Made by a program: the position numbers and the translations under genes | Shown: positions 13,011 to 63,577 of the stretch, piece after piece | How the letters are laid out: each line of letters starts with the position of its first letter | Numbering within the stretch: position 1 is the first letter of the stretch | The notes under the pieces: generated by a model | What the model saw: only the letters and a program-made list of their open reading frames with translations | What the model was told of the DNA's origin: nothing | Databases searched by the model: none | Assembly (NCBI GenBank): GCA_964527925.1 | Contig: CAZGQO010000001.1 | Span: 324,808-388,807 of the forward strand | Reading direction: 5' to 3' | DNA length: 64,000 bases | Source of the DNA: an uncultured Ignavibacteriaceae bacterium | GTDB lineage: Bacteria > Bacteroidota > Ignavibacteria > Ch128b

Positions 13011-13047
13011 AAAAAAACTCCCTACACTGAAGAATCAGCATAGGGAG
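13011..13047 (-). terminator. Rho-independent terminator downstream of ftsZ
   Basis: On the minus strand: CUCCCUAUGCUGA-uucu-UCAGUGUAGGGAG stem-loop followed by UUUUUUUAUAUUUUUUU. Begins about 30 nt after the ftsZ stop. Confidence 0.6.
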
Positions 13048-56855: not shown

Positions 56856-57413
56856 TCAACTCTTTAAAGCGTATATTGATCTTAAATTTCTATATTTCTG
56901 AGTATGGTCTAAACCATACCCTATTACAAATCTATTAGGAATTTGAAATCCGATGTAGTCAAGCTTAATATCGTATTTAGTTGCTTCAGGTTTATGAAGT
57001 AAAGTAACAATTTTTATGCTCTCTGGTTTCTGTGATTCTATCAAGTTTTTCATATAAACAATTGAAAGACCTGAATCCACAATATCTTCAACTATAATTA
57101 CATCTCTGCCTTTAATATCTGCATTCAATTCTTTTATCAGTTTCACATTTCCGCTTGAGATTTTTGCGTCTCCATAACTTGATAATTTCAAAAAATCTAC
57201 TTCACAATCAACAGAAATGTTTCTGATTAAATCGGCAAAGAAGATGACAGAACCATTAAGGACACCAATAAAGATTGGTACTTTTTTCACATAATCTTTA
57301 CTAATCTCTTCGCCTAATTCAGCTACTCTCTTTTGAATGGTTGGTTCATCGATTAAAATTTCAAAAGTTTCACCATTAACAACAATTTCTTTTGCGTTAA
57401 ATTTCGAAATCAT
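56856..57413 (-). CDS. hpt: Hypoxanthine-guanine phosphoribosyltransferase
   Basis: 185 aa. PRPP-binding VIIVEDIVDSGLS. Confidence 0.85.
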   Translation of the reverse strand: MISKFNAKEIVVNGETFEILIDEPTIQKRVAELGEEISKDYVKKVPIFIGVLNGSVIFFADLIRNISVDCEVDFLKLSSYGDAKISSGNVKLIKELNADIKGRDVIIVEDIVDSGLSIVYMKNLIESQKPESIKIVTLLHKPEATKYDIKLDYIGFQIPNRFVIGYGLDHTQKYRNLRSIYALKS

Positions 57414-58797
57414 AATTTATTCTCGCTTTTATTACTCGTTTAGTTTCACTGGTGACTTTGTATTTTTCAGAAAGTCTTACACCAACAACCCAAATTATCT
57501 CATTTCCATCACAAAGAACAAGAATTTGTTTCTTGAATAAAGCAGGGACTTTTGCATCAGTGAGCAAATCACTAACTTTTTTCGAATACTTCATACCTAA
57601 CGGAACAAGTTTATCACCAGGTCTCCAATTTCTTAAAATTAATTTGCCTTTAATTTTTTCTTCATCAAAAAATTCGACTGAAGAATTATCTGATAACTTA
57701 ACTTCTTTCACTAATGCTGAACTTATCTTGAATTCAAAATAACTTCCGTAATATTTCTGCAATTTTGAATCGTAGGTAATCGAAATGTTTACTTCTTCAA
57801 ACTCGGGGATTGTTAAGATCAAAATAGAAGCTGATTCTCTTAACGCAACAATTTTATCGGTTATCTGAATTGTAGTTCCTTTGTCCTGTTTGATTAGATT
57901 AATTATCTCCTTAGTTTTATCATAACCGAGTGAAAGATTAAATTGAATTTCAACTTTCTTTCTCACCATATCCATTATGATGTAACTTTTGTAATCAACA
58001 CTCTCTTCGAGACGAATTCTAAGCATCTTATCGACTTTTTTCGAAACAAACAATTTTTCAAACTTTTCTGATTCCTTCTCAATATATTTTTCAAGTAACC
58101 AGAGGAGTTGTGCCGTAGAAAGTAAAGTTTCGTGAAGGTTAGGATTTAATTCCTGTAATAAAGGAATGATTTTGTTTCTGATAAAATTCCTTGTGTATTC
58201 TTCATTGAAGTTTGTTTCATCAATTCTAAACTCTAATTCTTCTTCTTTCAGGAAATTTGTTATTTCATCTTTAGTGAGACAAAGCAATGGTCTTATAATA
58301 TTATCTCTTTTTGCAGGAATTCCTCGCAAGCCTGATACACCGCTACCTCGAGCAAAATTGAAAATCATAGTTTCAACATTATCGTTGAGTGTATGTCCAG
58401 TTGCAATTTTATTTGCACCAAATTTCTGAGAGGCTGCTTGAAATAGTTTGTATCGTTCTTCTCGTGCAGTCTCTTCAATACTCTTTTTTCTATCTTTAGC
58501 TAATGTTGCGATATCTTTCTTTTCGACTAATAATCCTATCTTGTTTTCTTTACAGAAATTTTTTACAAAAAGTTCGTCATCATCAGAGTTTTTGCCCCTT
58601 AGTTGATGATTCAAATGAGCCGCGTAAATTTTTAAGTTGAATAAACTCTTGATTATTAGTAGAAGATACATCAAAAAAGTAGAATCTGGTCCTCCACTGA
58701 AACCGACAACAATTGAATCATTATTTTTGATCATTTCGTTGTCTCTGATGAATTTCAGAACTTTTTGAACTATGGCAGAATTAATTCTTTTTTTCAT
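57397..58797 (-). CDS. tilS: tRNA(Ile)-lysidine synthetase
   Basis: 466 aa. PP-loop VVGFSGGPDSTFL. Conserved tilS-hpt-ftsH gene order. Confidence 0.85.
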   Translation of the reverse strand: MKKRINSAIVQKVLKFIRDNEMIKNNDSIVVGFSGGPDSTFLMYLLLIIKSLFNLKIYAAHLNHQLRGKNSDDDELFVKNFCKENKIGLLVEKKDIATLAKDRKKSIEETAREERYKLFQAASQKFGANKIATGHTLNDNVETMIFNFARGSGVSGLRGIPAKRDNIIRPLLCLTKDEITNFLKEEELEFRIDETNFNEEYTRNFIRNKIIPLLQELNPNLHETLLSTAQLLWLLEKYIEKESEKFEKLFVSKKVDKMLRIRLEESVDYKSYIIMDMVRKKVEIQFNLSLGYDKTKEIINLIKQDKGTTIQITDKIVALRESASILILTIPEFEEVNISITYDSKLQKYYGSYFEFKISSALVKEVKLSDNSSVEFFDEEKIKGKLILRNWRPGDKLVPLGMKYSKKVSDLLTDAKVPALFKKQILVLCDGNEIIWVVGVRLSEKYKVTSETKRVIKARINYDFEI

Positions 58798-59692
58798 AAG
58801 TTAAATTCTTCATATAGTCATAGATTTGTTTTGAAACTCTTGCAATAGTTTCTTTTCCTTTTGTTGCATCTTCAAGTTCTTTAGATAAAATCACCAGTAC
58901 ATATTGCTTACCATCTGGGAGAAAAACTATTCCGCTGTCATGTTCAACCTTTGATATACTTCCTGTTTTGTGAGCAACTTTGACATCTCCTGGTAAATAT
59001 TTTGGAATTTTATCATTGAATTTTTGGTCCATCAAAATTCTAATCATTGCATCACAATCTTTTTCAAATAAGATTTTCTTTTCAGCAATCAAAAGATAAA
59101 GTTTCATCAAACTCAGAGCATCGGTAATATTGTTTAATCCAGCTTCATAAGCTTTGATGTCTTCAACACCACGCAGGACTTTTAAGTTTTCTATTCCTAA
59201 ATTTTTCATTGTTTGATAAACTTTATCAGCACCAACTAATTCAATCAAAAGATTTGTAGCTAAATTACTGCTTACAGTAATCATATCATATACTAAATCA
59301 TATATCTTGTGTTTTTGACCGATCAATGAATAAAGTTTATCATCACTATCACTGGAAAGATCAAGACTATAGGGTGATCCATCCACAATACTTTTAAATT
59401 CATTCTTAACAAGGATAGAATCATCGAGAGAAAATTTGCCCTCGCCAGCCTGTTTGAAAACTTCTATCATCACAGGAGTTTTCATCGTGCTTGCGGCATG
59501 AAAAATAATCGACTCGTTGATTAAAATTTGATTTTCCGAATTGCCAATTTCCTGGAAAGCAACAGCGAAAGTACCAGCAGTGGAGCTTAATTCTTTTTCA
59601 ATATTTTGTTTTAATGGATTCAAATTAACCTGTGAATGAATTTGATTTACAAAAGCAAGCATAAAAAAAAATATTGAAATGTATACTCTCAT
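58781..59692 (-). CDS. Class A beta-lactamase-like periplasmic serine hydrolase
   Basis: Start refined to MRVYISIFFFMLAFVNQIHSQ (signal peptide). SxxK = HAASTMK, SxN = VSSNL, KTG = HKTGS. Omega-loop Glu166 context not canonical. Confidence 0.6.
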   Translation of the reverse strand: MRVYISIFFFMLAFVNQIHSQVNLNPLKQNIEKELSSTAGTFAVAFQEIGNSENQILINESIIFHAASTMKTPVMIEVFKQAGEGKFSLDDSILVKNEFKSIVDGSPYSLDLSSDSDDKLYSLIGQKHKIYDLVYDMITVSSNLATNLLIELVGADKVYQTMKNLGIENLKVLRGVEDIKAYEAGLNNITDALSLMKLYLLIAEKKILFEKDCDAMIRILMDQKFNDKIPKYLPGDVKVAHKTGSISKVEHDSGIVFLPDGKQYVLVILSKELEDATKGKETIARVSKQIYDYMKNLTYEKKN

Positions 59693-59702
59693 AAAATATT
59701 GT

Positions 59703-60176
59703 TTATCTTGAAATCTCAAGAATCTGAAGTTCAATCAATCCTGCAGGGACATTTACTTTAACAACATCCCCGACTTTTTTCCCGAGCAATTGCCTGCCAA
59801 TAGGACTGTTGATTGACATTTTACCGTTTTCAAAATCAGCTTCTTCAGGAGAAACGAGATGATAGATTTGTTCTTTATTGGTTTTAAGATTTTTGACCTT
59901 AACTTTTGTAAGAACTCTAACTTCATCTGTTGAGATTGAATTTGTATCGATTATTTTAGCACGAGCTAGCATACTTTCAAGTTTAGCAATTTTAAGTTCG
60001 AGCAATCCCTGTTCTTCTTTGGCAGCATCATACTCCGCGTTTTCTGAAAGATCACCGTGAGTCCGAGCTTCAGCAATTTTTTGAGCTATTTCTTTTCGAC
60101 CACGAATTTTTAAGTCATTTAATTCTCTTTCGAGTTCGAGTAGTCTTTCTCTTGTCATATAAATGTAGTCGTTCAT
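59703..60176 (-). CDS. greA: Transcription elongation factor GreA
   Basis: 157 aa. N-terminal coiled coil with acidic tip (DLSENAEYDAAKEEQ) and C-terminal FKBP-like domain. SD AAAGAGG 7 nt before the ATG. Confidence 0.9.
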   Translation of the reverse strand: MNDYIYMTRERLLELERELNDLKIRGRKEIAQKIAEARTHGDLSENAEYDAAKEEQGLLELKIAKLESMLARAKIIDTNSISTDEVRVLTKVKVKNLKTNKEQIYHLVSPEEADFENGKMSINSPIGRQLLGKKVGDVVKVNVPAGLIELQILEISR

Positions 60177-60200
60177 ATTGAAAACCTCTTTAAACTTGTT

Positions 60201-60235
60201 GGGACACTATAAAAAAATTAGCCACTTCCTTAAGG
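60201..60235 (-). terminator. Intrinsic terminator in the greA leader (GraL-like attenuator), about 25-60 nt upstream of the greA ATG
   Basis: Minus-strand RNA: UUAGCCAUUUCC-cuuaa-GGAAGUGGCUAA (11-bp stem, one mismatch) followed by UUUUUUUAU, then the SD and ATG of greA. Confidence 0.55.
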
Positions 60236-60359
60236 GAAATGGCTAATTCTCAGTACAAACTTAGTGAAAGGTCATTTTATTAGCAAATGATTTTTAAGGA
60301 TGTGATAATTGGCGAATTTAATTTGTGTTCATTTGCGTAATTCGTGGTTGGAAATGTTT

Positions 60360-60377
60360 AGCCGCTAATTCACGAAT
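60360..60377. repeat. 18-bp direct repeat AGCCGCTAATTCACGAAT, copy A (second copy at 61837-61854)
   Basis: Identical 18-mers in the same orientation, 1,477 bp apart, flanking the COG1373 ATPase pseudogene. Copy B forms a perfect 10-bp hairpin (cgctaattca / tgaattagcg). Confidence 0.5.
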
Positions 60378-60547
60378 TTTTTGCTGTAAAAAAGCAAATC
60401 TAGTTTTAATTTTTTCTTAACATCACTTTGATTTACGCTAAAATCTCATAAAGTATAAATTTATTTCAATACTAAATCTGGTTTTATCATAAATATAAGA
60501 TTTTATATTTTTTATGATTATCAATATAAATTCATTCAGATTGATGA

Positions 60548-61682
60548 TTACTTTAGTTCCAGCAGGAATTCCTCAGCGGGAACAATAGAAATTCCATCTA
60601 TTAACAATCTTTCTTTTCCACAATAAATAAGGAATCTCTTAGCTTCAGGATAATCTTCACCAAATGATTTGAGTGATCTTAACATTTGTGGATGAATCGT
60701 ATTGGTGTTTTTCACCTCTATTGCATAAAAAATATCTTCGTCATAAATAACAAAATCTATTTCATCTCCAGAGAAAGTTCTCCAATAGTATAGCTTCGCA
60801 TCTGGATGAAAATAATCAATCCATGCTCGTAGATGTTGCGCTACAAAACCCTCAAATGCAGCACCTGATTTTTCATCAGGTCTATCAAGAGGACCAGAAG
60901 GTCTAAGCGTATTATAAATACCCGCATCAAAAAAATAAAATTTAGGATGGGAGGCTACATTCCTTTTCATCCTTCGCGAAAATATGGGAACTCTATGACC
61001 TAAAAGTAGGTCTTCTAAAATTGTGATATAGCCTTCAACTACTTTACTTTCTATCTGACACTCTCAGGCTACACTACTGATATTTAATACAGCACTATGA
61101 GAAAAGCTAATTGCTTCTAAAAATCTTGTGAAGTTTCCAATATTTCTTGTAAGTCCTTCCATCTGAACTTCTTCTTTAACATAAAGATTTACATAAGCGT
61201 GAAGTGTTTATTTTGGATCCTCACTCCTAAAAATGAGAGGAATAGTACCTATTTGTAAGGATCTGTCCAGTTCAAATTTTTCTTTGAGTTCAGCTGCAAC
61301 AAAAGGGTGCATTTGTTTTAATTAATGCTCTACCAGCCAACAAGTTCACACCTCCCTTTCGTAGTTTGCGAGCACTTGAACCTGTCATTATAAACTGAAT
61401 GCCTCGCTTTTCTTCAATTAAACTGTGGACTACTTCGATAAGCTGTGGTGCTTTTTGTATCTCATCTATGACCACTGTCTTTTTATCTTTATGAGCTTCA
61501 ACTAATTCTTTTAATCTTTCTGGTCGGGCAGTGTAGTTCCTGTAGACATCAGGAAACAGCAGGTCAACATAGATTGCATCAGGGTAATTTTGTTTAATAA
61601 AAGTAGATTTACCTGTTCCCTAAGGTCCGAAAAGGAAGAAACTATTTTTTTCTGGTTTTAATAATCGTTCTATTAATTCCAT
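60548..61682 (-). pseudogene. Disrupted COG1373/DUF4143 AAA+ ATPase gene
   Basis: N-terminus MELIERLLKPEKNSFFLFGP*GTGKSTFIK has a TAG stop inside the Walker A motif. VVIDEIQKAPQLIEVVHSL...FIMTGSS AAA region follows, then at least one frameshift and two more in-frame stops. The C-terminal DUF4143-like part (track ORF 60548-60970) is in another frame. Confidence 0.65.
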
Positions 61683-62010: not shown

Positions 62011-62680
62011 TTACTTCTTTTTACTTCGTCTGCACCCCAACTGCCCCATTGTTTGAAAAAGCAAGCAACATTTTGTTGTTTGCACTGATAAAAAATTTCT
62101 TCAACCTACAGTTGTTTTATTGGTCTTGCTTGCCGTCCAGATTCTCCACCAACTATCGTACAATGAATTCCATTTAAATTTAATTTACCAACTGAACCTA
62201 TAAGTGGTTCAAATGAGATAAATCTTACTTTTGCTTTTATTTTTTTTAAAGAATCTATCCTTTTCTTGAATGTTGCATTCTCAACGCTAACACCCAACCA
62301 AACATTTTCGAGCACTTTTCTATCGGAAAAATGCTCTACCATTATTTTATCCCGCTTTGTCAGAATTTGATAAATATGCTGTGGAGTCTTTCTAATTACA
62401 TCAAAAATCATATCCAGATATTCAAAAGGCATTTCTTCATGAAAAAGATCACTCATTGAATTTACAAAAAATTTAGTCGGCTTTTTAATTTTCAATGGTT
62501 CTTCAAGTCTGTGTACAAAATTTTGAATTTAAAACCATCTTTATAATCTTCTAATCCCATTGACTTTAATCTATTTGCAAGGACTTCTGCATAACAAAAC
62601 TTACAACCTGCAGAAACTTTATCACATCCAATAGAAGGATTCCATACTTTTTCTGTCCATTTGATTTTTGTGGTCTTCAT
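62011..62680 (-). pseudogene. Frameshifted phage Gp37/Gp68-family (PF07505/DUF5131) gene
   Basis: MKTTKIKWTEKVWNPSIGCDKVSAGCKFCYAE (family N-terminal signature) is in one frame and the ...CTIVGGESGRQARP segment in a second. The C-terminal ...CLLFQTMGQLG (FFKQWG-like) part is in a third frame. Confidence 0.6.
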
Positions 62681-62790: not shown

Positions 62791-63577
62791 TTACGGCAAA
62801 AGTTTTATTCCATATCCTTCAACATTGCCAGATTTACCCCTATAATATTTTTTCTCAATCACATCAATAATTTTATCACCAAATGAATATTTTTTTCCTT
62901 CATTTATTTATACCATATTTTCTAAACATATACCTTCGTGATGGATGGGCAATCAAATCTGCCAATTGTAAGCAGGAGATATTTAATAGTTTAGTCTTTA
63001 CTTTTAATTCTTTACTTGTCAATCAATTCTGAATTCGTTTAGCTTCAATAAATTGAGTGCCATCCATAAAAATGCTTGTGTAAGATTTTTTTAATCTCAT
63101 ATCTTCTTTACCCCCGCGTGATTCCACCATTACCTCACCTGTGGAATTATTTGCATCAAGAAAAAAGAAAAAACGTTCTAGAATAATTTCCAAACAATAA
63201 TGATAAGGATCATATTTCCATGTATGATATTTAGTTTTGTGTTCCAGTTTATCAAGTAAAACTGATATAACTACAAATTTTAAGTCAGATAAAAGTGCGA
63301 GAAAATAAGATTCAAATTTATTGTTTATTTCCTCATCTCTTAAGACATTAAAAGGATACCTTTTATTAACAATATCTTTTCTATGAAGAATTACAGGTTC
63401 ATCAGGATGATATGGGAAATATTTTTGCTTTAACTTTTCTAATTCTGGTGTGACTGTTGATTTGACATAATCCAAATCGAAGATTAATCCAGTTAAGCTC
63501 AAATATCGGTGATTAGGATCAATAGAACTATCTAAATCGTTATTTCCTACTTCATCAATATAAGTTCTATATTTCAC
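62791..63577 (-). pseudogene. Frameshifted DUF3800-family gene
   Basis: The 184-aa ORF starts MKYRTYIDEVGNN (a DESG-like motif). The conserved C-terminal LADLIAHPSRRY motif and the terminal ...KKYYRGKSGNVEGYGIKLLP segment lie downstream in two other frames. Confidence 0.4.

Follow-up and report, generated by a model that had tools for sequence, protein, structure and literature searches.

A conserved terminator-like hairpin in the predicted greA leader of an Ignavibacteriaceae bacterium and its relatives: an architectural analogue of E. coli GraL

GreA rescues stalled RNA polymerase and proofreads transcripts, and in an uncultured Ignavibacteriaceae bacterium its gene is preceded at short distance by a hairpin and a run of U residues. 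Is this element an attenuator within the greA leader, comparable to GraL of Escherichia coli, as an initial annotation of the DNA had proposed, or does it serve another purpose? The window that we analysed is a stretch of 64,000 nucleotides (64 kb) with a GC content of ~32%. In it, the greA open reading frame (157 aa; 59703-60176, minus strand) matched both the GreA_GreB_N and the GreA_GreB domains of Pfam (E about 1e-26 each), confirming that its product is GreA; the exact protein sequence is present on one public contig, from the same organism. Downstream of greA, an ORF of the Beta-lactamase2 family (58781-59734, minus strand) overlaps the greA stop in its longest reading and is followed by tilS (57397-58797, minus strand), the ends of these two genes overlapping in turn. 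No terminator was found between greA, the Beta-lactamase2-family gene and tilS, so the latter two probably share the greA transcript. The downstream neighbour of greA is the same in a related locus, L001. Upstream of greA, and on the same strand, the window carries a run of broken genes (60548-60970, 61290-61475, 62106-62680 and 63023-63577), comprising two or more fragments of an AAA_14/DUF4143 ATPase, a DUF5131 gene present as two overlapping ORFs and a DUF3800 ORF. This run looks like a decayed accessory island.

We then examined the layout of the element itself. On the greA strand, the stem-loop UUAGCCAUUUCC-cuuaa-GGAAGUGGCUAA occupies positions 60246-60218, and a U7 tract follows immediately 3' of the stem (60217-60211), as the initial annotation had described. 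The GC-containing hairpin that it reported is present, with a stem that is 12 bp long in place of the 11 bp given there (11 Watson-Crick pairs and one G.U pair; 5 G-C pairs; 5-nt loop). Its placement upstream of greA also held, with the distance of about 25-60 nt from the start codon revised to 35-70 nt for the hairpin and U-run together: the greA ATG is at 60176, the hairpin lies 42-70 nt upstream of it and the U-run 35-41 nt upstream. The Shine-Dalgarno-like AAAGAGG that had been noted was read at 60191-60185 on the minus strand, 8 nt 5' of the ATG. Folding, which had been suggested as a check, returned the hairpin at -16.5 kcal/mol and a z-score of -3.05 for a 161-nt region relative to dinucleotide shuffles. 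The hairpin is the dominant structure of the predicted leader, and it combines the stable GC-containing stem-loop and the U-tract of an intrinsic terminator. When the predicted transcript was folded, this terminator hairpin could be extended to 17 bp if a 5' GAGAA pairs with the U-run. Within the predicted leader, the centroid fold leaves the Shine-Dalgarno sequence free, although the minimum free energy structure has it partly paired to the early ORF. Folding of the predicted leader revealed no competing fold, and no leader ORF fits into the leader sequence upstream of the terminator.

How often does a site of this kind arise? We defined a strict site as a hairpin with a dG ≤ -16.5 followed by a tail that starts with UUU and holds at least 6 U in 8 nt, and searched both strands of the 64-kb window. 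Four strict sites were found in the real sequence, compared with a mean of 0.1 over ten dinucleotide shuffles, and only two of the four are intergenic: the greA leader site and one located 34 nt after the ftsZ stop. The ftsZ site (13018-13047, minus strand) is composed of a hairpin, T7 and then ATA, and lies 48 nt before a gene for a HAD-family hydrolase. Because it is the only other intergenic site of such strength in 64 kb, intrinsic terminators of this strength seem to be sparse in the genome. Since the same signal ends the ftsZ operon, the organism appears to use a hairpin followed by T7 as a terminator; this suggests that it ends operons with the same kind of signal as is found in the greA leader, and the ftsZ site can serve as an internal positive control. 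A simple promoter and terminator scan missed the greA site, and our own scanner was used in its place. The miss is likely explained by an upstream AGAAUU that pairs with the U-run, such that a maximally extended stem consumes the tail.

To place the element in a wider context, we collected 80 loci from species genomes and 80 from metagenomes, covering Ignavibacteria, Bacteroidota and Rhodothermota, and applied a uniform hairpin scanner alike to the 150 nt upstream of greA and of other genes. In the first 80 loci, a terminator-like hairpin was detected upstream of greA in 95% of cases (61/64), compared with 26% for other genes (64/247). Where the upstream neighbour was divergent, an arrangement in which the hairpin could not end the neighbour's transcript, it was found at 11 of 12 greA genes versus 16 of 62 other genes in the same 80 loci. 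Over all loci, a hairpin and U-run occurred within 150 nt upstream of greA in ~94% (148/158), with a median distance of 37 nt from hairpin to start codon and 80% of hairpins positioned 16-59 nt upstream. At least one of the ten hairpin-negative loci is a scanner miss (L086). The upstream neighbours of the 20 closest loci fell into 8 unrelated homology groups. Together, these comparisons support a hairpin and U-run on the greA strand that is tied to greA irrespective of the upstream gene. The GreA sequences closest to that of the window came from Ignavibacteria MAGs, with a best identity of 73%, and a scan of metagenomes gave no relative above 60% identity; L001 is therefore the only locus to share the stem type seen in the window, TTAGCCATTTCC.

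The leader varies in some lineages. In four Ignavibacteria loci (L013, L016, L084 and L085), greA follows a ribBA-like gene and has neither hairpin nor U-run; the distance from the ribBA-like gene to the greA start is 3-12 nt in L013 and L016, and an AT-rich spacer of up to ~115 nt intervenes in L084. The leader terminator has been lost or bypassed in some lineages, and because of these four ribBA-linked loci we regard the element as dispensable, common but not obligatory. Three Dyadobacter loci (L014, L015 and L017) have longer leaders, ~60-170 nt upstream of greA (locus position ~2830-2945), in which a TAnnTTTG box ~170 nt upstream is followed by an ORF of ~15 codons (MRKKTIHMCRNDLGS, MVYSKSHSNRKDEVF, MVNTKSYINRKEKVF) and then by the terminator. 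These ORF-bearing leaders may represent a leader peptide variant of the greA leader. Two further loci carry two tandem units of hairpin and U-run between promoter and greA (L088, ~194-290; L089, ~2393-2490).

We next asked whether the stem has been maintained as a structure, as a covariance search in relatives had been among the checks put forward by the initial annotation. Twenty leaders sharing a GCCA...UGGC stem base were aligned (alignment A1), with the 12 pairs of the window as the reference. Standard pairing was found in 87.8% of cells, versus 28-53% when the 3' partners were slid to other registers. Compensatory double changes were observed in 9 of the 12 pairs (42 cells; 20 relatives), and none of 500 shuffles reached the observed covariation score, so the search bore out a conserved stem. 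RNAalifold, run unaided, predicted 10 of the 12 pairs, the two outermost being absent. Counts of G.U wobbles (17) exceed those of A.C pairs (5), as would be expected if the structure forms in RNA of the greA strand. These data support a stem that has been kept through compensatory changes. The CCA/UGG of the lower stem is invariant in all 20 leaders (A1 columns 10-12 and 35-37, corresponding to window positions 60242-60240 and 60224-60222), among GreA proteins that are only 57-73% identical, and with the predicted start the lower 5' arm of the stem is also the initially transcribed sequence. Other clades have conserved stem bases of their own, namely GAGUCCCG...CGGGAUUC, AACGGUC...GACCGUU and CAACGCUUC...GGAGCGUUG.

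A covariance model (R1) was built from the 20-leader alignment. In the window it returned one significant match, the greA leader itself (47.2 bits), and in 0.8 Mb of flanking DNA it returned greA leaders only, including one Rhodothermales locus outside the training set. Because R1 matches greA leaders only, the element is neither a repeat nor a generic terminator consensus.

If the hairpin attenuates greA, it has to lie within the greA transcript. Upstream of it we found a predicted promoter, TTGCTA-17-TAAGTTTG, that spans 60286-60256 on the minus strand. The predicted -35 element TTGCTA (60281-60286) aligns with TTGACA, TTGACT or TTGAAA in 20/20 close relatives. The predicted -10/-7 element TAAGTTTG (60256-60263) is of the Bacteroidota type, fitting the Bacteroidota -7 consensus TAnnTTTG, and is identical in L001, where the flanks have diverged. 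With +1 set 7 nt from the -10 hexamer, as is usual, the predicted start is G 60251 or A 60250, which leaves 4-5 nt ahead of the hairpin; applied to the close relatives, this rule places +1 directly on the base that opens the stem in about half of them. All 20 close relatives carry TTGnnn (mostly TTGACA, TTGACT or TTGAAA), a spacer of 17-18 nt and TAnnTTnn upstream of the hairpin. Among 146 loci, TAnnTTTG occurred within 60 nt upstream of the hairpin in the sense orientation in 87, compared with 5 in the antisense orientation and 15 further upstream, and the box ends no more than 10 nt before the hairpin in 48 of 89 box-bearing loci. The intergenic DNA of the window holds TAnnTTTG 3 times in sense and once in antisense, too little such DNA to establish the promoter type. 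No promoter-like element was found in the 41 nt between hairpin and ATG. A conserved promoter-like element thus precedes the hairpin, and this supports placing the hairpin inside the predicted greA leader.

What would a hairpin at this position do? In many relatives the stem begins within 0-5 nt of the predicted start, a geometry shared by known 5' stabiliser hairpins such as those of the ompA and aprE leaders. This geometry, and a fold that dominates the predicted mRNA, would suit a 5'-terminal hairpin that shields greA mRNA from 5'-end-dependent RNases, with a U-run that is incidental or serves some other purpose and with little or no termination. For a stabiliser a U-run would be superfluous, yet in 20/20 close relatives, even at 45-54% GC, the stem is directly followed by a T-run, and hairpin and U-run are found together at 148 of the 158 loci. 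The site also has the same form as the terminator of the ftsZ operon. We therefore consider it unlikely that the element acts purely as a stabiliser, and stabiliser and terminator functions could coexist.

Alternatively, the locus could chiefly be an sRNA gene, whose ~40-nt terminated leader would act in trans, as has been reported for GraL and nudE, with any effect on greA being secondary. Effects of GraL in trans have been reported in E. coli (PMC2836576, PMC6829880), and the invariance of CCA/UGG among the 20 relatives exceeds the sequence conservation that a terminator would need. Against such a role, the segments in which seeds usually lie, namely the loops of the 20 leaders and the upper stem, are free to vary in both length and sequence, and the only conserved single-stranded segment is the U-run of an RNA that is almost fully base-paired. 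Moreover, the element is strictly linked to greA in three phyla, as would be expected if it acted in cis. A predominantly trans-acting RNA is, on this evidence, decidedly unlikely.

The hairpin might also end a transcription unit lying upstream, either the neighbouring gene or an unannotated sRNA in the 300-nt gap, and so shield greA, which would then start downstream of the hairpin or be transcribed by read-through only. In favour of this reading, greA and its upstream neighbour share a strand in the window and in 45 of 64 loci, the gap is only 66-100 nt in some Bacteroidia, where the hairpin comes just after the upstream stop, and the mapped greA 5' region of Flavobacterium psychrophilum (see below) begins further upstream. 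However, in the window the hairpin is 302 nt from the upstream stop compared with 42 nt from the greA start, and the ORFs that precede it are remnants of a decayed AAA_14/DUF4143 gene. The hairpin is likewise retained in 11/12 loci with a divergent neighbour, neighbours are unrelated across loci, and a conserved predicted promoter stands between neighbour and hairpin. The stretch of 41 nt from hairpin to ATG offers no promoter-like element, and we judge termination of an upstream unit to be very improbable. We also ruled out a bidirectional terminator, since no U-run follows the hairpin on the plus strand; a repeated or mobile element, since R1 finds a single copy in the window; and a classical terminator/antiterminator, riboswitch or leader-peptide attenuator, since the predicted start is at most 5 nt from the hairpin and neither an alternative fold nor an Rfam match was found.

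The site is thus probably an attenuator in the greA leader, of the type represented by GraL in E. coli. Sequence comparison confirmed the element as real and conserved, and it is best read as a leader terminator or attenuator of greA in a superphylum for which none had been described. Comparative evidence supports every structural part of the interpretation first proposed for it; termination at the greA leader and feedback by GreA are inferred. RNA polymerase would start at ~60251 from TTGCTA-17-TAAGTTTG, as the conserved boxes indicate, and the first ~35 nt of RNA are predicted to fold into the 12-bp hairpin, followed by U7. Part of the polymerases would then release a leader RNA of ~40 nt at ~60211-60214, while those that read through would continue for a further 35 nt to the Shine-Dalgarno sequence and greA, and probably into the Beta-lactamase2-family gene and tilS. 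With 5 nt at most between the predicted start and the hairpin, neither an antiterminator nor a leader peptide nor a ligand-binding domain could be accommodated, and any regulation would therefore have to act on the termination efficiency of the polymerase. By analogy with E. coli (PMC6829880), more active GreA could lead to more termination and less greA mRNA, forming a negative feedback; in a minimal version, the element would be a constitutive throttle on a strong promoter.

More tentatively, an intrinsic terminator that lacks an antiterminator and sits at or near +1 may be a near-universal companion of greA in Bacteroidota, Ignavibacteria and Rhodothermota, with RNA polymerase itself as the sensor and GreA activity read as termination efficiency, a proposal that we regard as possible but doubtful. 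Leader terminators of greA are also known in Proteobacteria and Firmicutes, their sequences being unrelated from lineage to lineage. The same architecture is found at ~94% of greA genes in a distant superphylum, in a minimal form of predicted promoter, hairpin at or near +1 and U-run. If the proposal is true, the feedback principle would be ancient or repeatedly reinvented, and the stripped-down FCB version could help to find the missing factor of GreA autoregulation in E. coli. The minimal form narrows the possible regulatory signal, since there is little apart from the terminator on which such a signal could act. Simple test systems could be set up in culturable organisms, including Flavobacterium, Bacteroides and Ignavibacterium. 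For annotation, the element would constitute a cis-regulatory RNA class covered by no Rfam family.

Lastly, we compared the element with known RNAs and with published greA leaders. A search of the whole window against Rfam at gathering score returned nothing, as did a search of 20 related loci, and in E-value mode the leader region gave only noise (U4, microRNA precursors). The Enterobacteria greA leader family, RF01769, had no match at E ≤ 10 on window positions 60100-60600, and none at its gathering score (60 bits) in the whole window or in the 20 related loci, whereas the E. coli positive control scored 127.5 bits. Because RF01769 has no match here while the E. coli control scores, the element is to be read, at the level of sequence, as an architectural analogue of GraL and not as a homologue or a member of RF01769. 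The label 'GraL-like' in the initial annotation is therefore apt for the architecture (promoter, few nucleotides, terminator, greA), and does not extend to membership of RF01769.

Predicted 5' terminators upstream of greA-family genes have been reported in distant lineages, with greA/rnk ranking 7th among attenuator-prone gene families (Naville & Gautheret, 2010, PMC2965389). Those candidates share this placement with the element described here and differ from it in being from Proteobacteria, bacilli and Clostridia and in having an antiterminator described each time, where none is possible in our leader; Bacteroidetes are unmentioned in the main text of that paper. No paper came up in whole-word literature searches that combined greA with Bacteroidetes or B. 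thetaiotaomicron, and no greA entry for B. thetaiotaomicron was found in the supplements of two transcriptome papers. The only description of the element that we found in the Bacteroidota and Ignavibacteria literature is an unannotated table entry for F. psychrophilum (THC0290_N_1499; PMC9723704, Table S7). This greA 5' region, of 105 nt, was shown by experiment to be transcribed and was flagged as significantly structured, and like our leader it presents a box (TATCTTTG), a hairpin, a U-run and greA, in a member of the same superphylum. It differs in its stem sequence and in that the mapped region starts ~50 nt upstream of the presumed promoter box, for which reason start sites may lie further upstream in some lineages; its authors proposed no mechanism and drew no link to GraL (PMC9723704). 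The initial annotation had set its reading against a greA start downstream of the hairpin, and in F. psychrophilum the mapped 5' region includes the hairpin.

Of the E. coli transcripts, about two-thirds terminate within the greA leader (PMC2836576), and in vivo GreA, when active, acts through the leader to repress greA (PMC6829880). This GreA-dependent control was not reproduced in vitro and requires an additional, unnamed factor (PMC6829880). Termination, autoregulation and trans targets have been shown in E. coli. The two leaders differ in the spacing of terminator and ATG (~95 nt in E. coli, compared with ~35-41 nt here) and in their promoters, E. coli having overlapping sigma70 and sigmaE promoters and our window a single predicted promoter of the Bacteroidota type. 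They are alike in that a promoter, predicted in our window, is separated by only a few nucleotides (19 in E. coli; a predicted ~5 here) from an intrinsic terminator, putative in our case, with greA beyond it, and in a terminated RNA of ~40-60 nt, which in our case is predicted. In both, the stem is held by compensatory changes, and neither element carries a classical antiterminator.
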